NCBI GenBank assembly: GCA_014729085.1
Contig: WJKM01000004.1
Coordinates: 68,345 to 132,344, forward strand
Reading direction: 5' to 3'
DNA from: Candidatus Dojkabacteria bacterium
Lineage (GTDB): Bacteria > Patescibacteriota > Dojkabacteria > B142 > WJKM01
DNA length: 64,000 bases
Part shown: positions 3,898-50,251 of the stretch, piece after piece
How the letters are laid out: the number at the start of each line of letters is the position of its first letter
Numbering within the stretch: the stretch's first letter is position 1
The notes under the pieces: model-generated
The model's input: the letters and a program-made list of their open reading frames with translations, nothing else
Database searches by the model: none
Told to the model about the DNA's origin: nothing
Translations under genes and position numbers: made by a program

Positions 3898-6800
3898 ATG
3901 TCAAAGAAAAAACTCTTTACAGGAATACTTAGCGTATTTTTTCTAATATTGACAATTCCATTTGGAATTATCCTCATTAAGGCAGCTGGTATTCCTTACC
4001 ATAACACTTATTTTATCAATTCAACACCTCAAGACTACGGCTCTGATCAAGTAAATTGCGCTGAATATACTAATCTCGAATATGTAAGACCTATTTGGAG
4101 TGATGTAGAACCAACTGTTCCAAGACGCAGATTTAGGTACGGACTTCAAATCAACGTCCCAGCTGACGGACAGGGATTCATCGACTATACAGTTGGAGCA
4201 CCATATAGATATCCAGCAGACAGCCCTTGGATACAGTTTACAAATGAAGGACAGTACAGAACCAGAGTAAGAACAGAAGAAAATGTAGATACCTCAGATC
4301 CTGATTACGAAGAAGTAAGTGCATGGAGCTCACCTGTATGCAATATTTATTACGACATTACCTCACCTTTAGTAACTATAACAAACCCTGTTCAATCTCC
4401 AACTAACGCACTAAATAGTGATATTTCGTATGATATTGACAACGAAACTTTAGAATCAATTGAGAGACTCAGAATTAGATTAACTGGAGATATGGACCAT
4501 ACATTATTTAATAGTAATAATACTGATGAATGGGGATTAACAGATCCTGCAAATTTAATTGGAACTTTAAATCTAGATCTTTGTGATTACAACCCAATAA
4601 ATGAAATGTGTAATATTCAAGAAGGAGAATATACCCTAAGAGTCATTGCTCTTGATAAAGCAGGAAATGAAAGGGGACTAGCAACTCAAACCTTAAAAAT
4701 TGATCGGCAAGCTCCACAGGTAACTAGAAATTTTTCAGATTACCCATTGCATTACAACCCAACAACCGGAAATTTTGTCTTTAGATTTACAGCTAACGAT
4801 ACAGGAAGAGGTGAATCAAGAATTACTGGAGCAACAGCTGTCGATTGGAATGACGAAACTACACCTCTAGGTACTATCACATTTGATAGCCCACTTGATT
4901 CACATATTGAAACCTTTGTTTGGGATCCAACAGGACTTGCAGATGGATTCTACACAATTAAACTATGTGCAAGTGATGAAGCTGGAAACAATGGAGAAGT
5001 TGATTACGATGAATGCGAAGTACTAGACATATATATAGATACTACAGCTCCAACTGACCTAAACTGGGGAGATGCTTGGGAGTATGCAGCTAATAATGGA
5101 ATAACTCTATATACAAAACAAGATGACAATATTAGAGTAAATTGGGAATATGCCGGACAGGATGTAGTAAGATATACTTATTACACAAATTATCCAGATT
5201 TCCCACCTTTTGCTGCTGAGACAAGAGAATGTTCAGATCTTCCATTTAAGGAAAGTTCTACTGCAAACTTAACTGATGAATATGGAAACAGCAAATGTAC
5301 TGTTAATGGAAATAGTGTACCTGTTAATCAGTACGAACAATATCTTTCAAGAACTGGAAACCATACTTTTGAAGTGACCGTAAAAGACCTAGCAGGAAAC
5401 GAGAATCCAAATGTATTAAATGGTTTAACCATATATCATGATCCACAAGATCCAATGATTAGTTACCTCTATAGCAATGTGCAGAATAGTACTACGAATG
5501 GAGTATTTGATGTAACAGTAAATTCGGAAGATAATGAAAGTGGAGTAAAACTAATAAATATACAAATAGAATCAATTAGTACAGGTGTAACAGTATTTGA
5601 TCAATCATACGATAATCCGAATGGACATGAAACAGATTATTCACTTACTGAAACAATGGATGTTGCTAATTGGGACGGTCAAATAGATGATGGTTTTTAT
5701 CAACTTTGTACCTATACAGAGGACCATGCAGATGACTTAATATCTGATCATATGTTCTCAGGAGATGGCGATACTGTTGAAAATGAACAAGTAGGTAATC
5801 AAAGCACACAACAATGTTTTGCTTTTTATCTAGATATAACTGGTCCTGAATCTTATGCTGAACTAGTTGAAGGTTATATAGATGAACCTGAAGATGATCA
5901 AGATGTTGGTAGTCTAAGAGTTGAAAACCAGGGATGGTTTAATGTCGATGAATTCTTTATTGACCCAAGAGAAGGTACAAGAGGATTTAACTGGCATGAA
6001 GATTACACTAAATTCCAAATAAGAGTTGACGACTATACAACAGGAGGATCGGTTTACTACAAAATTATTGAAAATATTACTGATCCAGAAGTAGCATGTG
6101 GAGATACAGGATATACAAATACAAACAACGATAAAGTATTGTTTACATGGGACTGGGAATATGCACAGCAACACCCCGAATACCATCTAGTATTTGAACC
6201 AGAATTTATGCGAACTGAAAATATGCATAAATTATGTTACTTCGCTGAAGATGAAGCAGGAAATCGAGAATATAAAACTAATTACGAGATATTCAAAGTA
6301 GATGATACGCCTCCTGATATTTCTGTAACACCAAATGCAGATGACCAAGAGGACAACAACGGGGAAGTAGTATATGTATTCGATGAAAGTCCAGCTCAAT
6401 TTTCAACTGGATTAACAGATCAAGGAGGTAATACAATAGCTGGTGTAAGAAAATTGTATTACGACGTATACTCACTTTACTCTGTAAACGATGAATGCAG
6501 ATATTCACAGAACAAAATAGTTGACTCGGAGACTGTATACCCAGATGACAGGCAGGAACCAAAAGACTGGGCTGCACCAACTAGTGTAAACGACACAGTT
6601 TCTGTTGATTTACAAGAAGGTTATTACTGTATAAAATTTGAATCCAGAGATGATGCTAGAAATAAATCCGAAGTTAGATGGTTCAAATTACTTATTGATC
6701 CGGATGACTTAGCACCAGTAATCACCGCTATGACACCTGAACTTTCATCTACAAGTACAGTAATCAGACCAGGAGATGAATTTGAATTTGATACAACTGA

Positions 6801-8250
6801 TACAGATAGAGGAGATAATGATGTTGTTTCCTTTGAAATAACACCAAGTATTGGAAATGTTTCGGCTAACGGACAGGAAGCTCCAGATAGAACATTTACA
6901 TGGACAGTATCTGATGCTGATCTTGGTACATACTCAAACGTAAGATTTTGTGCAAGAGATGCTAGAGATAATATTGGAATACCACCAGATTCAACAGACA
7001 TTCCAACAGGGGACTATCCTTACAATCAAACTCCTGGAGAAGAATGCTATGTAATATCTGAATTAGAAATTACTGACGACAATGAGGCGCCAATTATTAC
7101 TACTCAGATTAATCAAGCTTTTCAAAACGTACTCAATGGTGACCCTGTTGAAGAAGATGTAAACTATACATTTGTTGTAGACGATTCCACAAGAGGAAAT
7201 AATGACATTGCAAGAGTAACTATTGAATCAACATTTGCAAATCTTAGATTCATCAACGCAGGTGATGCATTGGATTCTCCAACAGAAGAAGTTGCCTGGT
7301 ATGTTCCAGATGGAGCTCTAGAAAACGTAGATCCAGGCACATACTCAATCAGGCTATGTGGAGAAGATGTACTTGGAAATGCTGGAGATGGAAATGATAC
7401 ACAACTTCCAACTGGAGACCCTGACACCGATGTAGAGTGCTTCTTATTTGATATAGTAGTACCAGAAGAGACTCAGTGTACACTGGTTCTTGTCGGTGGT
7501 GAATGGGTATGCGAAGAACAATTGACACGTAGTACCAGATATACACATATGAGAAATCATACACAGAATGATGTTCCTTATGAATGGATAGACCCAAACT
7601 GGAATGATAATTGGATGGATGCATATGTAATAGCGGAAAACAAGGAAGATGGTGAATGGAGATCATGTAACTTTATTCCAGACGGAGGAACAGCACCAAG
7701 TTATTGCTACAATCAGGATTCTGTATACAAATTCTTCAATAAAAACTTTGCTCAAATAATATCGGCTAGACCAAGTGTAAATACAGCAAGTATGACTAGA
7801 GACTTCTTCAGACAGCAATTTAACCTTGTTGAAGGAAAACAAGTAGCAAGTGCAAAACTATATTTTACAGGAGATAATGTAACAAAATTCTGGATAGATG
7901 GAAATCCAATTGCCGCGAATCAAAATGGGAATCTTACAAACGAAGGAGTTTGTGATGGTTCGGCACAAGGTAATGGACATTACGGAGGAAGTATAAATAT
8001 GATAGATGTAACCGATAAACTAAATCAGAATTTATCTACACATCTGATTGCCGGAAACATTTTGAATACAAGACCTTGTGGAAGCAACCATCCTCACGGT
8101 GTTCAGTTCTACCTTTGGATACAATACACTGATGGAACGATTCATCCAGGTTCTACAAATCCTGTGAACCCTGGTGGCGGATATTCAGGTCAACAATATG
8201 TCATCCAGAAAGGATATGGAACTGAATTTGGAACTAATCTTTATCTCTAG
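3898..8250 (+). CDS. giant secreted/surface protein with multiple Ig-like (Big-type) repeat domains, putative adhesin
   Basis: 1450 aa with an N-terminal signal/TM segment (LFTGILSVFFLILTIPFGIILI). At least seven recurrences of an Ig-like domain motif ending in D-x-AGN-x (RVIALDKAGNE, CASDEAGNNGE, TVKDLAGNEN, CYFAEDEAGNRE, ESRDDARNKSE, CARDARDNIG, CGEDVLGNAGDG). Rich in T/D/N/Y. Confidence 0.6.
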   Translation: MSKKKLFTGILSVFFLILTIPFGIILIKAAGIPYHNTYFINSTPQDYGSDQVNCAEYTNLEYVRPIWSDVEPTVPRRRFRYGLQINVPADGQGFIDYTVGAPYRYPADSPWIQFTNEGQYRTRVRTEENVDTSDPDYEEVSAWSSPVCNIYYDITSPLVTITNPVQSPTNALNSDISYDIDNETLESIERLRIRLTGDMDHTLFNSNNTDEWGLTDPANLIGTLNLDLCDYNPINEMCNIQEGEYTLRVIALDKAGNERGLATQTLKIDRQAPQVTRNFSDYPLHYNPTTGNFVFRFTANDTGRGESRITGATAVDWNDETTPLGTITFDSPLDSHIETFVWDPTGLADGFYTIKLCASDEAGNNGEVDYDECEVLDIYIDTTAPTDLNWGDAWEYAANNGITLYTKQDDNIRVNWEYAGQDVVRYTYYTNYPDFPPFAAETRECSDLPFKESSTANLTDEYGNSKCTVNGNSVPVNQYEQYLSRTGNHTFEVTVKDLAGNENPNVLNGLTIYHDPQDPMISYLYSNVQNSTTNGVFDVTVNSEDNESGVKLINIQIESISTGVTVFDQSYDNPNGHETDYSLTETMDVANWDGQIDDGFYQLCTYTEDHADDLISDHMFSGDGDTVENEQVGNQSTQQCFAFYLDITGPESYAELVEGYIDEPEDDQDVGSLRVENQGWFNVDEFFIDPREGTRGFNWHEDYTKFQIRVDDYTTGGSVYYKIIENITDPEVACGDTGYTNTNNDKVLFTWDWEYAQQHPEYHLVFEPEFMRTENMHKLCYFAEDEAGNREYKTNYEIFKVDDTPPDISVTPNADDQEDNNGEVVYVFDESPAQFSTGLTDQGGNTIAGVRKLYYDVYSLYSVNDECRYSQNKIVDSETVYPDDRQEPKDWAAPTSVNDTVSVDLQEGYYCIKFESRDDARNKSEVRWFKLLIDPDDLAPVITAMTPELSSTSTVIRPGDEFEFDTTDTDRGDNDVVSFEITPSIGNVSANGQEAPDRTFTWTVSDADLGTYSNVRFCARDARDNIGIPPDSTDIPTGDYPYNQTPGEECYVISELEITDDNEAPIITTQINQAFQNVLNGDPVEEDVNYTFVVDDSTRGNNDIARVTIESTFANLRFINAGDALDSPTEEVAWYVPDGALENVDPGTYSIRLCGEDVLGNAGDGNDTQLPTGDPDTDVECFLFDIVVPEETQCTLVLVGGEWVCEEQLTRSTRYTHMRNHTQNDVPYEWIDPNWNDNWMDAYVIAENKEDGEWRSCNFIPDGGTAPSYCYNQDSVYKFFNKNFAQIISARPSVNTASMTRDFFRQQFNLVEGKQVASAKLYFTGDNVTKFWIDGNPIAANQNGNLTNEGVCDGSAQGNGHYGGSINMIDVTDKLNQNLSTHLIAGNILNTRPCGSNHPHGVQFYLWIQYTDGTIHPGSTNPVNPGGGYSGQQYVIQKGYGTEFGTNLYL

Positions 8251-42803: not shown

Positions 42804-42876
42804 TTGTCGATCTGGTTTCCGGTTCTCGCCTTTCAATTCATACCAAAAATAAAAAATTCCACCTTTCGGTGGATTT
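42804..42876. repeat. ~73-bp repeat R75, copy 1 (other copies at 46956-47027 and 50106-50168), containing a bidirectional terminator hairpin
   Basis: ttgtcgatc(y)ggtttccggttctcgcctttca(w)ttcataccaaaaataaaaa(a)ttccacc(t)ttcggtggattt. It contains hairpins ccgg-ttt-ccgg and ccacc-tttc-ggtgg, flanked by A-runs and T-runs on both sides. Confidence 0.6.
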
Positions 42877-42935
42877 AATTAGAGGAAGCGACCTGCCTTC
42901 TCCTTCGCAAGTTCAGGATTGTTTTCAATAACAGT

Positions 42936-42966
42936 GGAGCCAAGTACTGGGCAAAGTCCGAACTGA
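42936..42966. repeat. direct repeat S, copy 2 (copy 1 at 46148-46176), flanking the DUF4297-HerA cassette
   Basis: ggagc-NNNN-tactgggcaaagtccgaact, 29/31 identical between the copies. Both copies begin with the same ggagc pentamer that starts the tRNA-Gly-derived core. Confidence 0.6.
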
Positions 42967-42986: not shown

Positions 42987-44744
42987 TTATGTAACGTTTT
43001 TCCAGTCCTTTGTTACATTTTCAAAATTAACATCTTTCCATTGTTTTTTCCAGATGTCTAAATAATCAATGTCCGGTGATTTTGGTTCTTGGTTGGGCAT
43101 GTGAATTTTAACCAATGAAGGCAAAATGATAGATTCCCCTATCAAAAGTGCTTCCCCAGCTTTCAATGTTGGCAAATAATTGGTTAAATCACCCAATGTA
43201 TCCGGAAGCAATTTCCTAACATAGTTTTGATCATCTGGATTTGTCAGTCTCATGGCAATAAAGTTATTGCATTGAGAAAAAATTGTTTCAGAAATTTCAG
43301 CTGGTCTTTGACTGACTATTCCAAGTGTAATTCCATATTTTCTACCTTCTTTTGCAATTCTTTCAATAGCTGTCCTTGAAGCCCTATACTTTGTTAAACC
43401 ACTTCTTGGAACATATTTGTGAGCTTCTTCAAAGATTAAAAGTAGTGGTGTATCACATTCAGATGAACCATCTAACATTTTTTTGTAATAGTATCCGTAT
43501 TCAAACAGTATTCTTGAAATAAGTGAAACAGTAACACTAAGAACTTCAAAGGGAATTCCAGAAAGATCAAATATTGTTACATTTGCCTTGCTTTTGGTAT
43601 AGCCTATGAATTGTTTTAACACGTCTTCAAGTGTAAGTGAGTCTGCATTTTCAAATAAAAACCTGAGTCTGGGATTATTCCTTGTTATATCAAGTCTTAA
43701 AATAAACCTTTCAAAATGACCCTTGAATGGTCCAGGACCAGCTTTTGTCGCCTTTGTTCTTGACTGTTCACAGAAATCAATATCATCTGTGAAGTATTTA
43801 GGAATTCTATCCGGAATCAATTCTCCACTAATTGATTTGGGTACGTTTTCACCTTCTAACTTCCCGATGACCTCATTATTCACATTTTTTATATATCTTA
43901 TTACTTCATCAATATTAAATCTAAAAGGGGAATCAAAGTAAATATTCTTAGAATCAATATCTGGATTTGTATGTTTTTTGTTTTCTGTAACAGCATATCT
44001 GAACTGTGAAACTTGATTATGTGAATTATCTTCGTTACTTTCAATAAAAAGATCCCCAAGCTCATCACTATCAAAAAGCCAATAGGGAATCTTTATATTT
44101 GAAGAATCAATGATGTTAGCATCAGGGAATGCTTCCCTATATTCTCCGCCTATATCAAAAATCACTATATGAGAATTGTTCAAATCATCATAACTACCAT
44201 TTTTTTCTTGTATTGCCTTTTGAATTATGGAAGCAACTGAATGTGACTTTCCAGATCCAGTTGACCCAACAATTGCAAAATGCTTGTTGAATAGTTTATT
44301 ACCATTCACTGGTACTGCAATAGCATTATTTTGTGCAAGGTCTGAAAACACAAACTTTTCTGAATCTTTCAATTTACATGAATATATCTTGTTAAAATCT
44401 TCATCTGATAATAGTTCTATTCCATTGTTAGGTGGAAGCGGTATCCCATGTGCACCACGTTCAAACTCAACTTTACCTTCTGACAATACCCTATATGATC
44501 CAATCAGTTCAACTTCAATAATAAATTGATTTTCACCCGCAGGCGTATCAGGATCTGTTGAATCTAAGTTTTTAATTTTGTAGTTCTTGATCACACCTAT
44601 AATGAAGTCACTTGAATCACTTTGGAAGGGAATTTTTATATAACTTCCAATATTAAAGTGATTATCAAATTGCTTTGAATCAAGGATTTCAATTGATACT
44701 ATATCCCTTGTTACACCTATTATCTTGAAATTTTCTGGGTCCAT
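42987..44744 (-). CDS. HerA/FtsK-superfamily ATPase (HerA-like helicase, DUF87-type), candidate antiphage defence component
   Basis: 585 aa. Walker A is FAIVGSTGSGKSHSVASII. Walker B is LLLIFEEAHKYVP. Further downstream are GITLGIVSQRPAEIS, a sensor/arginine-finger-like region, and an N-terminal HerA-type barrel. The gene abuts the upstream DUF4297-like gene. Confidence 0.65.
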   Translation of the reverse strand: MDPENFKIIGVTRDIVSIEILDSKQFDNHFNIGSYIKIPFQSDSSDFIIGVIKNYKIKNLDSTDPDTPAGENQFIIEVELIGSYRVLSEGKVEFERGAHGIPLPPNNGIELLSDEDFNKIYSCKLKDSEKFVFSDLAQNNAIAVPVNGNKLFNKHFAIVGSTGSGKSHSVASIIQKAIQEKNGSYDDLNNSHIVIFDIGGEYREAFPDANIIDSSNIKIPYWLFDSDELGDLFIESNEDNSHNQVSQFRYAVTENKKHTNPDIDSKNIYFDSPFRFNIDEVIRYIKNVNNEVIGKLEGENVPKSISGELIPDRIPKYFTDDIDFCEQSRTKATKAGPGPFKGHFERFILRLDITRNNPRLRFLFENADSLTLEDVLKQFIGYTKSKANVTIFDLSGIPFEVLSVTVSLISRILFEYGYYYKKMLDGSSECDTPLLLIFEEAHKYVPRSGLTKYRASRTAIERIAKEGRKYGITLGIVSQRPAEISETIFSQCNNFIAMRLTNPDDQNYVRKLLPDTLGDLTNYLPTLKAGEALLIGESIILPSLVKIHMPNQEPKSPDIDYLDIWKKQWKDVNFENVTKDWKNVT

Positions 44745-44753
44745 TTCGTTAAC

Positions 44754-45938
44754 TTAAAATTTAATTGCTTCATAAATTTGCTTAGTTGACAATCCTTCTA
44801 CACAAACTGATGGCAGTGATTCAAAACGCTCTGGAATGTTATGATCAAATGCATATATCATCTGTGGGGTATTTTGATAGTCAACTATACTATCGAAAGT
44901 AGATTCAGAAATTAGTCTCATTTCAAAAGAAATTCTTTCTAACGTTTCTGTAGCACGTCCATTACTTAAAGTTTTCTTTTCTTTTAGTGGTTTTTCAAAA
45001 AAGATGGAAGAATTGAAACTAATATTTTCATAGCCATCATTAAAATTTACATCATATCCAACTATCACTTTCTTTGCTTCTTCAACATGATCATCTGGTA
45101 CTACAAAGGTAATTGGATTTATGTCAATCTGTGGTTTCTTCCCTTTATAGTCTTCTACTACAGCTAATATAAGTTTCCCCATGTTATATGACGGATCATG
45201 TTTTACTTTTCCCAACATTACTAAATTTTCTTCTTTCCGTATGATTTTGCTAAACTTCTTTTTAATAAATGCCAAATACTTTTCTTCTCCTTTGAATTCT
45301 AGAAATGCTGAGTTAAAAATAATATTTTTACCAGATTTGACGTAATCCATTAGTTCCTTCCTATTTATTACCCGGTCTTCTGGATTTATTGTTTTTGTTA
45401 TTTTTTTTCTAATATAGTCAACTATATTAGAATAATAAAAGATTGCTTCATCAGTATTTGATGCTAAACCGAGTTCTTCATCCTGAAGCTTCCTAATTAC
45501 TTGTTGAAACTGCTGTTGGAAATCCGGTGCAAAATCTAAGACAAACTTCTTTATAAAGTCATTCTTTATTTTTTTACTGAACTGATCTTTCTTATTTCCA
45601 AGAATTTTGTTCAGGTTTTTTAATGAAAGGTGCCTGTCCTCACCTACAAACTTTTCATATCTTTTATATGAAGCAAATGAGGCATAAAGAAAGTAGTTCT
45701 TTTCATTATCATCCCGAAAATTATTCAGTAGATTGATTACAGGGGTTTTGATTTTTGAGGGCGTAAACGCTTGAGTTTCTTGGTATTTTACCTGAATCAC
45801 AAAATTTTTCGATGATATATCTTCAATAATTTCAACCCCAATAGGGTCTGTTTCATTAGTAGATTCAAGAATTTCAAATACAGTTTTGTCTATTTGATAT
45901 TCAAATCCTTTGATTGCATAATATCCACCATCGGTCAC
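44754..45938 (-). CDS. DUF4297-like (Cap4-type PD-(D/E)xK nuclease-like) protein, candidate partner of HerA in a DUF4297-HerA defence system
   Basis: 394 aa, within the 368-411 aa range typical of DUF4297. The N-terminus is GGYYAIKGFEYQIDKTVFEIL...IGVEIIEDISS..FVIQVKYQE (GxxYQ plus E..D...Q.K). The gene is co-oriented with the HerA gene and overlaps it by spacing. Confidence 0.5.
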   Translation of the reverse strand: MTDGGYYAIKGFEYQIDKTVFEILESTNETDPIGVEIIEDISSKNFVIQVKYQETQAFTPSKIKTPVINLLNNFRDDNEKNYFLYASFASYKRYEKFVGEDRHLSLKNLNKILGNKKDQFSKKIKNDFIKKFVLDFAPDFQQQFQQVIRKLQDEELGLASNTDEAIFYYSNIVDYIRKKITKTINPEDRVINRKELMDYVKSGKNIIFNSAFLEFKGEEKYLAFIKKKFSKIIRKEENLVMLGKVKHDPSYNMGKLILAVVEDYKGKKPQIDINPITFVVPDDHVEEAKKVIVGYDVNFNDGYENISFNSSIFFEKPLKEKKTLSNGRATETLERISFEMRLISESTFDSIVDYQNTPQMIYAFDHNIPERFESLPSVCVEGLSTKQIYEAIKF

Positions 45939-46010
45939 GAGTAAGTTCTAAGAATTATGATAAGTAATTATCTCAAAGAATTATTCCAACTTACAAATAA
46001 TATTTGATTT

Positions 46011-46152
46011 GGTTCGAACCAGCCAAAATCACTATCATTACTGGTAGGATGGAAGGTAATCACGGTAGGGGGTATCAAAAATTCGGTTTTAGCTCGAACC
46101 AATATGAATTATATTTGAAAAGGGTTTCGGGGTTTTTATGAGAAATTGGAGC
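46011..46152. repeat. ~140-bp conserved cassette leader, block A copy 1 (copy 2 at 49861-50002)
   Basis: About 85% identical between copies. Each ends in ...gagaaattggagc, immediately 5' (on the minus strand) of the first gene of a module (DUF4297 or the ATPase). It contains tataat and ttcaaa hexamers and a short hairpin attac...gtaat. Confidence 0.6.
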
Positions 46153-46262
46153 ACCCTACTGGGCAAAGTCCGAACTAGATTTTTGGAAATTCACTTTAAT
46201 TCTTTTGTTATAATATTATTAATCACTTTAGTTAACTATTATAATAAATAAACTACTTAATT

Positions 46263-46796
46263 ATGGTACCTACTGTTATTTTTAGTATAATAATATGTTT
46301 TTCGTTATACATATTTATATTCTCCTTACTTTCAAAAATAATATTAATTATTCTCAAACGTGTATTTCAATTATCACCAAAAATAAAAAAAATAATCTCA
46401 ATAATTGATATTATTTTAATTATAATTCTTATTCTGTGTATTCCGGCTATATTTATTTCTATTTTTATGGGTGGATGCTACACATCCTCACTAAAAACTG
46501 ATCAGATTTGTATTAATGAACCTGATAGTTATGGATGCTGGATTTGTGATAACGATGGAAATTATAACTATCAAAAAAATTCAGGTAGTGATATCAAAGG
46601 AACAGATCTTTGTGAGTTGTGTAATAAGGATGAAAACACGGGAATAAAAATTCAGACTGAAATTGCAAATATAACAGGCACAGAACTAACTTGTAATCGA
46701 ATAGTAGGTTCAAAAAATACGAATGATGGCATAGGGGTAGAACAAACTGAAAAAACAATTAAATGCATTTTGATAAAGGGAGAGAAAAATTGTTGA
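46263..46796 (+). CDS. small Cys-rich membrane-anchored hypothetical protein
   Basis: 177 aa. Two N-terminal TM helices are followed by a 100-aa domain with 10 Cys (CINEPDSYGCWICDNDG ... CELCNKDENTG ... CNR ... C..C). It lies between repeat S copy 1 and the tRNA-derived core copy at 46859. Confidence 0.35.
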   Translation: MVPTVIFSIIICFSLYIFIFSLLSKIILIILKRVFQLSPKIKKIISIIDIILIIILILCIPAIFISIFMGGCYTSSLKTDQICINEPDSYGCWICDNDGNYNYQKNSGSDIKGTDLCELCNKDENTGIKIQTEIANITGTELTCNRIVGSKNTNDGIGVEQTEKTIKCILIKGEKNC

Positions 46797-46858: not shown

Positions 46859-47040
46859 GAGCGATGGACCGGGCTCACGTGGATTTGTAGACAAATCCAG
46901 TATCAATTCAGGTAAGTTCACTTCCTCATTTCATTCGTCGTTCACTAACCCTTCATTGTCGATCCGGTTTCCGGTTCTCGCCTTTCAATTCATACCAAAA
47001 ATAAAAAATTCCACCTTTCGGTGGATTTTTATTTTTGGAG
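46859..47040. repeat. ~175-bp block B, copy 1 (copy 2 at 50003-50170); begins with a tRNA-Gly 3'-end-derived core and ends with R75
   Basis: The first 18 nt, gagcgatggaccgggctc, are the revcomp of the last 18 nt of tRNA-Gly (GAGCCCGGTCCATCGCTC). The remainder is about 95% identical between copies. The ORFs in the track (46857-47105, 49988-50170) are translation artefacts of this repeat. Confidence 0.65.
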
Positions 47041-47189: not shown

Positions 47190-47870
47190 TTAGATTGATT
47201 CAGTAACTTTGTATATCCCAGTACGACTAAAATCAGGACTAGGATTTAGTATCCATTTACCAAAAGAGACTTTATCTTTATCTGGACAATAATGCTCAAC
47301 ACCAATAGACAGTTCTTTGTCATCATCCACGCTAAGTAGCCAATACGATTTAAATCGATCATTCTTACTTTGGCAATCCACTTGAGGAATCAGGAGATCT
47401 TTATCAATCAGCCAGCCATCAATAAACAGTAAAAGATTCCTATTAAATGGAGAAACTTCTTTATCAATTTTATGACTCAAGGCCTTCTTAACTCCTTTCT
47501 CAAGATCAAGACCATAAAATTTCTTACTATTTTTGTTCTGGACAAAAGCAGATGTCTGCTCCAAAGCGTAAGCAAATCGGTCAATATAAACAAATCCATC
47601 ATCCAACTCTGTAAATCCCTGTTTTCCTTCTTGAAAACCAAATCTCACATCCTTATTATTTAAATTATTCTGTAGGATAACAAAAACGGAGAACACTCCA
47701 AGCATTTCATATAAAGAAAGATTAAAAGGATCAAGCTTTGAAGAATTGTATAAAGATTCAATCTTATTAAAATGATCTTTTAATGAATTAATAAGGGGAG
47801 AATACTGTTTCAAAGTTTTAAATGACCCATATGGGGGACTTTTAATAAATTTCGCCGAATATCCATTCAT
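47190..47870 (-). CDS. hypothetical protein, third gene of the ATPase module
   Basis: 226 aa with no recognisable motifs. It is co-oriented with and 17 nt downstream of the 127-aa gene. Confidence 0.3.
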   Translation of the reverse strand: MNGYSAKFIKSPPYGSFKTLKQYSPLINSLKDHFNKIESLYNSSKLDPFNLSLYEMLGVFSVFVILQNNLNNKDVRFGFQEGKQGFTELDDGFVYIDRFAYALEQTSAFVQNKNSKKFYGLDLEKGVKKALSHKIDKEVSPFNRNLLLFIDGWLIDKDLLIPQVDCQSKNDRFKSYWLLSVDDDKELSIGVEHYCPDKDKVSFGKWILNPSPDFSRTGIYKVTESI

Positions 47871-47887
47871 CCATTCCCTTTGAGATA

Positions 47888-48271
47888 TTAGTTTGGAGAG
47901 CTTCGCTCTCGTACAAATGATTCTATCATATCCTCGATCAGTTTCAGATGACTAAAAAATTTCTCACCCCAGAAGTCACAATCAACTTTCTTAGATACCT
48001 CACTCAATTTTTGTTTCAATTCACTTTCAAGAAACACCCCGGGTTTATAATTGTAAAGCCACAAACAAAACATGACCATCTCAACACTAAGTCTATACTC
48101 CTGGAAATAAAACATATGTATTGAATCAATGATAAAAATTTCAATAACCTCTGGTTCAAATTCTATCTCTTGATTTGGATCAGAAGATCCATGTTTAAAA
48201 TCATTATAATCCTGGTTAACAATATCCTTAAATCGTTTCACTGATGTATTACTTTTTCCATATCTCTTCAT
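47888..48271 (-). CDS. hypothetical small protein, middle gene of the ATPase module
   Basis: 127 aa with no recognisable motifs. Confidence 0.3.
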   Translation of the reverse strand: MKRYGKSNTSVKRFKDIVNQDYNDFKHGSSDPNQEIEFEPEVIEIFIIDSIHMFYFQEYRLSVEMVMFCLWLYNYKPGVFLESELKQKLSEVSKKVDCDFWGEKFFSHLKLIEDMIESFVRERSSPN

Positions 48272-48403
48272 GAAGTGTTCCTTATGATATTGTTTTAATA
48301 CATCCCTATTTAGATGTTCATCAGCTTTTTCAACAAAATATGATAAATGAATAAATAATATTACTGCTAATTACAATATTTAAAAGAAATTTTTATAAAA
48401 AAC

Positions 48404-49795
48404 CTATTTTTTAGTTTTCTTTGATTTTACTATCTTAATCATTTCCGTTATTGATTTTTTAAATTCGTTTTGCGAATATGTCTTATTGGCTGTATTTTCC
48501 GGGTGATGTATTGAGTGTCTTATATAAGTTGATAATGAAACTGATTCGTTACGTTTCTTTTTTTCGTTATACCAAGTTTTAGTTTTTGGTAGTTTTTTTA
48601 AGTCTGTCCTATACTTCCCTTCTATATACCCGTATAACTCATTATGAAATTCTACTGTAGGTATGTCAAACGCGTAATAATTCACTTCTCCCCAAGATGG
48701 GCTCCAAGGAAATAAATTTTCCTGTGTATCTTTGATATTCTTATACTTAATGATGCCCTTACTATCCTTTGAAAGTAAATATATTACTGTATTATCATCT
48801 TGAAGATGTTGCTTGAATAAATATGGAGAATGTGATGCCATAAAAATTTGCCCGTTTTGTTCTCCTTTTTGATCATTAAGTAGTTCTTTGAAATAATTGA
48901 GTAATTGAATTTGAGTTTGTGGATTTAAACTTTTTTCAGGTTCATCTATAGATACTATTACTCCTTCTGAAAATTCTTGATTCTGAAGAACTTGTATAGT
49001 CCTGTGTACCAAACTTTTTTCTCCTGAACTTAGATTTTCTAAACTTGAATCTTTCCCATTCTCTTCAAAATAAACTTGCCAACCATCTTTAGTTTCCCGA
49101 AGTTCTTTAAGATTCTTACCATAGGGAAGAATCTTTTCAAACGCTTTGCGTAATCTATTCCACCTTTTATCAATTACATCTTTAGGTATCTTCTTTTTAG
49201 GATGATCTATAATCCAGTTTCGAAGATCTTGATTATCGTGAAATTGTGTATTTATTAATAGTTGATGATTCCGAGCACCTAATTGACTATCATGGCTCAT
49301 AGCTGTAAAATTTTCTTTATCAAAAGAATCCTTTGTAATGCTAGAAACTTTCTTCAATCTATAATTAGGCTCTGCTCCAGAAAAAATGAATTTAAAATTC
49401 TGAACAAATTCTCCACTAATCCTTCCAAGATCAAGGTCAGTGTATTCATGAGAATTATCGTTGCTGAAAGAAATTTTTCTTCCCTCATTAGACATAATCA
49501 GCTTAATTGTTTTACCTTTAATTCCCTTATGAAACCATCCAACCGTTGTGATATTTTTCAAATTTTCGCTCTCATGCTTATTTAATTGGAATTCATACAT
49601 TCGTATTTCATCGCTAGCCGTAGGTATACCATTGTGCAAGAATCTGTCTATTATGTTTTCAAATAGATATGTCTTTCCAACACCATTATTGCCTATAAGG
49701 AGTACATTATCTGCAATTTTCCCATTAAAATTGAAATCAAGGTCCAGATCTCCAATAACGGGATTATTTTTAACTTCAATTTTTGAAATCTTCAT
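48404..49795 (-). CDS. ABC-type / AAA_15-21-like ATPase (OLD/Gabija-GajA/ABC-3C-type N-terminal ATPase), candidate defence ATPase
   Basis: Walker A is LLIGNNGVGKTY near the N-terminus. The ABC signature is LSSGEKSLVHRT. Walker B is VIVSIDEPEKSLNP. The D/H-loop region is IFMASHSPY. About 130 aa at the C-terminus are unassigned. Confidence 0.6.
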   Translation of the reverse strand: MKISKIEVKNNPVIGDLDLDFNFNGKIADNVLLIGNNGVGKTYLFENIIDRFLHNGIPTASDEIRMYEFQLNKHESENLKNITTVGWFHKGIKGKTIKLIMSNEGRKISFSNDNSHEYTDLDLGRISGEFVQNFKFIFSGAEPNYRLKKVSSITKDSFDKENFTAMSHDSQLGARNHQLLINTQFHDNQDLRNWIIDHPKKKIPKDVIDKRWNRLRKAFEKILPYGKNLKELRETKDGWQVYFEENGKDSSLENLSSGEKSLVHRTIQVLQNQEFSEGVIVSIDEPEKSLNPQTQIQLLNYFKELLNDQKGEQNGQIFMASHSPYLFKQHLQDDNTVIYLLSKDSKGIIKYKNIKDTQENLFPWSPSWGEVNYYAFDIPTVEFHNELYGYIEGKYRTDLKKLPKTKTWYNEKKKRNESVSLSTYIRHSIHHPENTANKTYSQNEFKKSITEMIKIVKSKKTKK

Positions 49796-49860
49796 TTTTT
49801 AAGTATTAAGAGTTGTTTTGATTATAACTTACCTATTTAGAGAAAAACAAAATTAAACTT

Positions 49861-50002
49861 GGCTTGAACCAGCCAGAATCACTATCATTACTGGCAGGAC
49901 GAAAGGTAATCACGGTAGGGGGTATAGGAAATTCAAATCTGACTCGAACTAATATGAATTATATTTGAAGAGGGTTTCGGCGTTTTTATGAGAAATTGGA
50001 GC
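49861..50002. repeat. block A, copy 2 (cassette leader)
   Basis: See copy 1. It abuts the tRNA-derived core at 49998-50016. Confidence 0.6.
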
Positions 50003-50170
50003 GATGGACCGGGCTCACGTGGATTTGTAGACAAATCCAGTATCAATTCAGGTAAGTTCACTTCCTCATTTCATTCGTCGTTCACTAACCCTTCATTGTC
50101 GATCCGGTTTCCGGTTCTCGCCTTTCATTTCATACCAAAAATAAAAATTCCACCTTCCGGTGGATTTTAA
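50003..50170. repeat. block B, copy 2, directly adjacent to the tRNA-Gly 3' end
   Basis: See copy 1. It is followed by aatttttggagc and then the tRNA. Confidence 0.65.
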
Positions 50171-50174
50171 TTTT

Positions 50175-50251
50175 TGGAGCGATGGACCGGGCTCGAACCG
50201 GCGACCTTCACTTTGGCAAAGTGACGTTCTAGCCAACTGAACTACCATCGC
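50175..50251 (-). tRNA. tRNA-Gly (anticodon GCC), CCA encoded
   Basis: The revcomp GCGATGGTAGTTCAGTTGGCTAGAACGTCACTTTGCCAAAGTGAAGGTCGCCGGTTCGAGCCCGGTCCATCGCTCCA folds as a cloverleaf. Acceptor GCGATGG/CCATCGC, anticodon loop TTGCCAA, T-arm GCCGG-TTCGAGC-CCGGT. Confidence 0.85.

Follow-up and report, generated by a model that had tools for sequence, protein, structure and literature searches.

A candidate single-gene defence protein that joins an ABC ATPase to a HEPN-like domain in a tRNA-Gly island of Candidatus Dojkabacteria

The DNA analysed here, referred to as the window, is a stretch of 64,000 nucleotides (nt) from a Candidatus Dojkabacteria bacterium (contig WJKM01000004.1 of assembly GCA_014729085.1, positions 68,345-132,344 of the forward strand). 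Within it we examined three co-directional open reading frames (ORFs) on the minus strand: the gene of an ATP-binding cassette (ABC) ATPase of 463 amino acids (aa; 49795..48404, from the ORF list), an ORF of 127 aa (48271..47888; NCBI GF362_00915) and an ORF of 226 aa (47870..47190; NCBI GF362_00910). An earlier, sequence-only reading had located these ORFs correctly and had proposed that they may form an undescribed three-gene defence system of the ABC-3C, OLD or Gabija type. The present analysis points elsewhere. With a probability of about 60%, the 463-aa gene is a self-contained sensor-plus-effector of the ABC-ATPase/HEPN class, with the architecture of PrrC and RloC, and the locus probably consists of a one-protein defence gene and two orphan passengers rather than a three-part system. 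The protein would be a PrrC/RloC-type fusion because the invariant R-x4-H motif and the four-helix topology of its C-terminal domain fit the description of the HEPN fold. A built-in effector is also favoured by the intact motifs for ATP binding and hydrolysis, by the conservation of the fused domain and by mobile or defence contexts that lack a constant partner.

The ATPase head (residues 1-355; 48731..49795, minus strand) contains, in the order that characterizes the SMC/Rad50/OLD-like branch of the ABC ATPase superfamily, a Walker A motif (GNNGVGKT, residues 35-42), an ABC signature (LSSGEK, residues 255-260), a Walker B motif with the catalytic glutamate (IVSIDEPE, residues 280-287) and an H-loop (ASHSP, residues 320-324); the same motifs had been noted earlier, the Walker A motif at these residues. 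An alignment of 27 sequences, made up of the window protein and 26 homologs, shows no variation at N37, G40, K41, S257, G258, D284, E285 and H322. Pfam assigns the protein to AAA_15 and AAA_21. The top PADLOC model is PtuA (6.6e-27, residues 1-356), followed by AriA, mad3, AbiLi, HEC-01A and GajA. When the family profile was compared with PDB sequences, the top-ranking matches were retron Ec83 PtuA (3.5e-23), PtuA 8ee4 (1.9e-22), AriA and a class 2 OLD, and these are limited to profile positions 1-355. The AlphaFold2 model, which was built from the 27-sequence alignment, has a mean pLDDT score (predicted local distance difference test) of 83. In the fold search, the alignment with PtuA spans at most 319 residues and leaves the C-terminal domain outside. 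The model has no long coiled coil, SMC-like or other, and the protein contains no cysteine. These sequence matches place the 463-aa protein in the defence clade of ABC ATPases and not with transporters, RecF or RecN. Its attribution to the OLD/GajA/PtuA defence type in the sequence-only reading is thus borne out by the PADLOC match to PtuA, by the ranking of the PDB profile matches and by its location in a defence island.

Generic ABC motifs do yield weak NCBIfam and Pfam matches to ABC_tran and SMC_N, as might be seen if the ATPase had a housekeeping role, whether in transport or as a RecF, RecN or SMC protein. We give this alternative practically no weight. Transporter models reach only ~26 bits against cut-offs above 200 (the best NCBIfam transporter match has 26.1 bits against a cut-off of 261), and SMC_N reaches 20.5 bits against a cut-off of 40. 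No gene for a permease or a binding protein adjoins the ATPase gene, and the top structural and profile matches are defence ATPases. The homologs also show a patchy distribution resembling that of mobile elements; for example, one is present in 10 of 5426 complete Escherichia coli genomes.

The C-terminal domain (residues ~360-463 and the stop codon; 48404..48718, minus strand) lies outside all of the matches to the ATPase head, and nowhere is the family better conserved than in these last ~100 residues. It carries the sequences SPSWGEVNY, FHNELYGY and YIRHSIHHPEN (R426-x4-H431), which correspond to the family motifs SPSWGE(I/V)NY, FHNELYGY and (Y/F)(I/V)R(N/H)xI(H/D)HPEN. E370, Y373, L387, Y388, R426, H431 and P432 are invariant in the 27 sequences. 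In the segment R426-H/N-x-I-H/D-H431, the R and the H are invariant in both the 27- and the 31-sequence sets, and the residue that follows the R is either H or N. More than 100 homologs, each ~485 aa long, share this conserved domain, and 112 of 124 proteins contain the R-x4-H motif, the set being made up of 120 ATPase hits, two relatives of the 226-aa protein and two self-hits. The AlphaFold2 model has pLDDT values of 92-97 over this domain (residues 370-460). Its predicted elements are a helix at 368-376, a helix at 381-394, a β-hairpin at 406-419, a helix at 421-430 that ends at R426..H431 and a helix at 442-462. E386, which is conserved at a level of at least 90%, is located on helix 2 (381-394), and the hairpin separates helices 2 and 3.

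The HEPN fold consists of four helices and is recognized by a conserved Rx4-6H motif, in which the R is followed by a polar residue (N, D or H); an acidic residue is present on helix 2, and inserts between helices 2 and 3 are common (PMC3710099). The C-terminal domain displays each of these features, with the topology read from the predicted secondary structure and not from a superposition. It also shows what marks the ABC-ATPase/HEPN class, namely a domain fused to the C-terminus of an ABC ATPase that carries the Rx4-6H motif and the polar residue. The likely effector is the C-terminal domain, a candidate HEPN-like RNase that resides within the ATPase protein itself. A check for a nuclease fold in the ATPase C-terminus had been suggested earlier; a candidate nuclease is indeed located there, of a HEPN-like type and not of the TOPRIM or HNH type. 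In none of the three proteins did searches of Pfam, NCBIfam, PHROGs and PADLOC detect a TOPRIM, an HNH or another known nuclease. In the 463-aa protein specifically, there is no Pfam match to TOPRIM, and the PADLOC models of GajA and Old align to the ATPase part only.

The genomic contexts of the family were compared in 80 genome loci, fetched by alignment-derived patterns, and additionally in contigs of close homologs. Neighbours were clustered for the 56 loci in which the C-terminal motif of the ATPase is retained (273 genes). No neighbouring gene is constant across the 56 loci. The only recurrent neighbour groups are HsdM (6 loci), HsdR (5), HsdS (3), Fic-motif proteins (4) and SbcD-like proteins (4). 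In four loci (L052, L053, L057 and L058; ATPase homolog at ~4000-5800), the homolog is inserted between hsdM/hsdS and hsdR, as prrC is, and Pfam confirms these assignments. A RhuM fragment adjoins the homolog in L117, and a homolog on a Klebsiella plasmid stands alone between two ISNCY transposases. The E. coli homolog, with 32% identity in the C-terminal domain (E 6e-28), is a single gene. It lies between an integrase gene and a major capsid protein gene, in a small prophage- or satellite-like element beside rcnR, and its copies in L089 and L090 (5998-7446 in both) are annotated as 'ATP-dependent nuclease' (WP_233618192.1 and WP_227474036.1). In IMG/VR, 22 viral contigs encode the C-terminal domain.

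These contexts bear on the role of the C-terminal domain. The closest solved relatives, the PtuA proteins, are ATPases without an effector of their own that dock a separate nuclease. By the same token, the C-terminal domain could be non-catalytic and serve in oligomerisation or docking, in which case the effector would be whatever gene adjoins the ATPase: the 226-aa protein in the window, and HD, SbcD-like, HsdR or other proteins elsewhere. The finding that 29 of the 56 homolog loci have a same-strand gene within 150 nt downstream, from varied families, would suit such an arrangement. We nevertheless regard it as improbable. R, H and E are invariant across loci with wholly different neighbours or none, whereas a docking surface would need to co-vary with unrelated partners. 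The effector is placed within the ATPase because these same residues are kept alongside many different neighbours or in their absence, and this pattern of sequence conservation makes an active site more likely than a docking surface.

Several observations weigh against a built-in HEPN effector. Statistically, the C-terminal domain matches no known HEPN: Pfam gave no match, and a profile search of the PDB sequences retrieved nothing. Its sole PADLOC match is to AbiTii and occurs in 1 of 31 family members; a link to AbiTii was rejected, since a single match of this kind is attributed to chance. Fold searches with the whole model are dominated by the ATPase head and do not represent the isolated domain. 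A single leader and a single terminator-like hairpin serve all three genes, as in an operon, and the locus has no restriction-modification (R-M) genes, unlike that of PrrC. The genes that closely follow the homolog at those 29 loci, all of them from unrelated families, count on the same side.

By analogy with PrrC, RloC and HEPN enzymes generally, we infer a mechanism in which a phage-derived cue would cause two ATPase heads to engage or separate in an ATP-dependent manner. This switch would in turn control the pairing of two HEPN domains, which would create a composite active site. The C-terminal domain is predicted to act as a metal-independent HEPN RNase. It would cut RNA, by analogy the anticodon loops of tRNAs, so that translation would halt and the infection would be aborted.

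PrrC and RloC are ABC-ATPase/HEPN fusions, and the RNase domain of PrrC has an essential R and H (PMC3710099). Like the window protein, E. coli PrrC, which is encoded in the EcoprrI type Ic R-M operon and kept latent by it, combines an N-terminal ABC NTPase and a C-terminal HEPN-class domain in a single polypeptide, and some homologs of the window protein are likewise embedded in type I hsdM/S/R operons. The two differ in that this embedding is absent at the window locus and in that, within PADLOC and the PDB, the nearest matches to the ATPase head of the window protein are PtuA, AriA and OLD. Apart from the chance match to AbiTii, the C-terminal domain finds nothing in PADLOC, which indicates that the window protein is not a close relative of PrrC, let alone PrrC proper. 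RloC, a wobble-nucleotide-excising tRNase, also joins an ABC ATPase to a C-terminal HEPN domain and is able to act without an R-M partner. RloC has a zinc hook on a long coiled coil like that of Rad50; the window protein, which has 463 aa, no cysteine that could form a zinc hook and no long coiled coil in its model, is therefore not RloC. Two further ABC-HEPN families, APECO1_4465 and ERFG_01251, occur within R-M operons, beside Fic/Doc and RhuM genes, and in prophages (PMC3710099). The window family is found in the same contexts (R-M, Fic, RhuM and prophage), and the window protein may be a member of either of these two families (Anantharaman et al. 2013).

The other defence systems with related ATPases share the head and differ in the remaining parts. 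PtuA from Septu and from type I-A retrons gives the best profile and structural matches to residues 1-355, and the window protein accordingly has a PtuA-type ATPase. However, the adjacent gene for the HNH nuclease PtuB, which belongs to Septu, is missing at the window locus, as are the reverse transcriptase and the noncoding RNA of the retrons. OLD, GajA and AriA belong to the same broad clade of defence ABC ATPases. In contrast to OLD and Gabija, the window protein has no fused or adjacent TOPRIM domain, its C-terminus being helical with one hairpin, and no GajB helicase gene is adjacent; in contrast to PARIS, no AriB partner (TOPRIM/DUF4435) was found among the neighbours. The three-gene layout headed by an ABC-type ATPase is shared with Lamassu and ABC-3C, but neither the LmuB-type SMC coiled-coil insert nor a conserved middle component and effector are present here. 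The proposed kinship with ABC-3C, OLD or Gabija as a three-gene system is therefore not upheld: TOPRIM, HNH, helicase partner and coiled coil are all lacking, and the partners are not conserved.

If the proposed function is correct, the 463-aa protein represents a widespread single-gene ABC-ATPase/HEPN-like family that extends from bacteria of the candidate phyla radiation to E. coli prophages and Klebsiella plasmids. The libraries that we searched hold no dedicated model of the family, the C-terminal domain has neither a Pfam or PADLOC model nor a solved structure, and no experimental study of the family was found. Its niches are those of PrrC: type I R-M operons, prophages and positions beside Fic/Doc toxins. 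Because of these shared niches, the family may be a common second-line abortive-infection RNase, which today's tools for detecting defence genes would report under no name but "PtuA-like" or "AAA family ATPase". Through its E. coli member, the family can be tested directly.

Two small genes lie downstream of the ATPase gene. The G+C content by codon position is of the coding type in all three ORFs, and their composition equals that of the neighbouring genes and the surrounding genome. Shine-Dalgarno-like sequences precede both small genes, with AAGGA upstream of the ATG of the 127-aa gene. The ATPase gene and the 127-aa gene are separated by 132 nt of AT-rich sequence, and the 127- and 226-aa genes by 17 nt. 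The two small genes share a repeat-bounded cassette with the ATPase gene and are probably co-transcribed with it.

Neither small protein resembles any described family. Among 5.8 billion protein clusters, each of the two matched only itself, and neither has a significant match in Pfam, NCBIfam, PHROGs, PADLOC or the PDB sequences; PADLOC yielded no family at E<=1 and Pfam no HNH match for either one. The 226-aa protein belongs to a very rare family. An exhaustive HMMER search of 1.8 billion representatives found two relatives, P0123 (5.8e-18) and P0124 (8.3e-14), which are 224 and 225 aa long and ~30% identical, and a metagenome scan re-found one of these two and nothing further. The alignment of the three sequences shows an α/β pattern and conserved residues at E88-x-D90-D91-G92, S175-Y-W-L178 and H193-Y194. 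The AlphaFold2 model built from these three sequences is unusable (pLDDT 34.6). A check of this protein for a nuclease fold had been suggested, and neither the family searches nor the PDB profile searches gave any sign of one. The 127-aa protein has a faint Pfam match to HEPN_Apea (E 0.11). The possibility that the small proteins are dead-HEPN partners was rejected, as hhalign against the C-terminal-domain profile gave a probability of 0.4%.

Association with the ATPase was equally undetectable. One of the 226-aa relatives is encoded on an archaeal-type contig, flanked by unrelated small genes, and the other on the margin of an integrated element that carries a serine recombinase and type I R-M genes; an ATPase gene or a 127-aa-like ORF is adjacent to neither. 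Relatives of either small protein occur within 5 kb of the ATPase homolog at 0 of 84 loci. A tblastn search of both small proteins against 87 loci matched only the two known 226-aa relatives, and an unfiltered phmmer search against the genes downstream of ATPase homologs found no relative of either. Homologs of the small genes are thus never adjacent to an ATPase gene, in a sample that consists of the two 226-aa relatives only. The roles of middle component and effector, which had been suggested for the 127- and 226-aa proteins, find no backing in conservation with the ATPase or in any effector signature. The two genes are probably lineage-specific orphans, carried as passengers or as independent cargo.

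A three-component system, in which the ATPase would sense infection and a 127-aa middle component and a 226-aa effector would act together with it, would suit the layout of the locus. The three genes are co-directional and occupy a single cassette bounded by repeats, which has a leader upstream of them and only one strong terminator-like hairpin downstream; the spacing of the last two is only 17 nt, and each has a Shine-Dalgarno-like sequence. Unrelated small genes also lie downstream of other family members (a 121-aa ORF in L114/L115; an HD-motif protein in L116 and L072). The homology data nonetheless make such a system unlikely. The 127-aa protein has no homolog among the protein clusters, both 226-aa homologs stand away from any ATPase gene or 127-aa-like ORF, no locus of an ATPase homolog holds a relative of either small protein, and ATPase homologs occur as isolated single genes. 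The 132-nt AT-rich gap parts the ATPase gene from the 127-aa gene, and no signature of a nuclease or other effector is present in either small protein. More generally, unless conservation links them, orphan genes beside a defence ATPase are not to be counted as components of its system.

The same spacing leaves some room for a separate two-gene module, toxin-antitoxin-like or made up of a defence gene and its regulator, that merely shares the cassette with the ATPase. The 17 nt within the pair contrast with the 132-nt gap before it, which contains a promoter-like site (48384..48355, 9/12 match), and the 226-aa homologs occur without the ATPase, one of them at the edge of the integrated element with the type I R-M system and the serine recombinase. 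However, promoter-like matches are not enriched across the AT-rich region (35 found against 38.6 expected in shuffled sequence), and the 226-aa homologs have no 127-aa-like neighbour, which indicates that the pair is not conserved. We therefore consider such a module conceivable but doubtful, and prefer to view the ATPase as a one-protein defence gene followed by two orphans.

The small genes that follow ATPase homologs elsewhere were also inspected, and those in L005, L001, L114, L116 and L117 show no similarity to one another. The HD-motif protein follows the ATPase homolog in L116 (2291-3428) and in L072. The L116 copy is divided between two overlapping ORFs (126 and 272 aa), perhaps as the result of a frameshift; these sizes superficially resemble the 127 and 226 aa of the window ORFs, and the sequences are unrelated. 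In L114 and L115 (Falkowbacteria, 6418-7203), the 121-aa ORF shares 8 nt with the end of the ATPase homolog and is followed by a gene with a Pfam match to Tad4. The sequence upstream of the ATPase differs between these two loci, with GmrSD and R-M genes in one and an insertion sequence (rve) in the other.

The window segment 42804-50251 forms an island of minus-strand cassettes with common ends. It is anchored by a tRNA-Gly(GCC) gene (50175-50251, minus strand), which was identified by ARAGORN and matches the Rfam tRNA model with 66.1 bits. An 18-nt core from the 3' end of this tRNA is present in three exact copies in the window (starting at 46859, 49999 and 50177), against 0 expected by chance. 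The copy at 49999..50016 (minus strand) marks the promoter-proximal edge of the module's cassette. The copy at 46859..46876 (minus strand) marks its distal edge and lies within a 149-nt repeat, which has 99% identity with 49999-50147. A 158-nt leader block (49845..50002, minus strand; repeat family D2) is located directly upstream of the ATPase gene, and a second copy with 85% identity (45995-46152) precedes the neighbouring DUF4297-HerA operon; GCTCCA immediately precedes the leader start in both. Repeat analysis and the exact copies confirm that the leader block ahead of the module and the tRNA-derived cores at its bounds, both described in the sequence-only reading, are real. The leader was considered as a structured RNA or a member of a known RNA family and rejected as either: it shows no significant fold (z -0.86) and has no Rfam match. 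It was not found in IMG/VR.

At the other end of the cassette, a GC-rich hairpin with T-runs on both strands (47010..47025), which resembles a bidirectional terminator, lies ~165 nt downstream of the 226-aa gene and is the sole strong terminator-like site after the three genes. It is contained in a 73-nt repeat, D4, which occurs at 42804-42876, 46956-47028 and 50096-50168, one copy after each cassette. The adjoining DUF4297-HerA pair (394 aa and 585 aa; 42987-45938, minus strand) matches the PADLOC models DUF4297 (1.9e-28) and HerA (1.5e-204), and its cassette is bounded by a different 30-nt repeat that likewise ends in GCTCCA (42935-42964 and 46147-46176). The module is cargo of a small tRNA-attached defence island, as follows from the tRNA-Gly gene, the bracketing cores, the common leader and terminator blocks and the adjoining DUF4297-HerA pair. 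The pattern looks like the serial site-specific insertion of related mini-elements with different defence cargo. A test of ten ORFs across 32-54 kb revealed no integrase, and the island holds no hsd genes; the neighbours of the module are the DUF4297-HerA pair, an orphan ORF and the tRNA-Gly gene.

This organization also allows for the island to be an array of exchangeable defence cassettes that have their leader and terminator in common and are delimited by short repeats with GCTCCA at the end, cores that resemble a tRNA 3' end. The ATPase cassette would then be a true three-component unit, with the 127- and 226-aa proteins as lineage-specific regulators or co-effectors of an ABC-HEPN nuclease, a partner set that has not been seen with any known ABC defence ATPase. 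We hold this to be a long shot, and a passenger role for the two small genes is preferred.

The orphan ORF between the two cassettes encodes 177 aa (46263-46796, plus strand), with hydrophobic segments at the N-terminus and a Cys-rich tail, and it matches no family. Further pairs of direct repeats are present at 35918-36142/37606-37825 and 55411-55578/56791-56958 (85-90% and 71% identical, respectively); these probably mark paralogous genes that are unrelated to the module.

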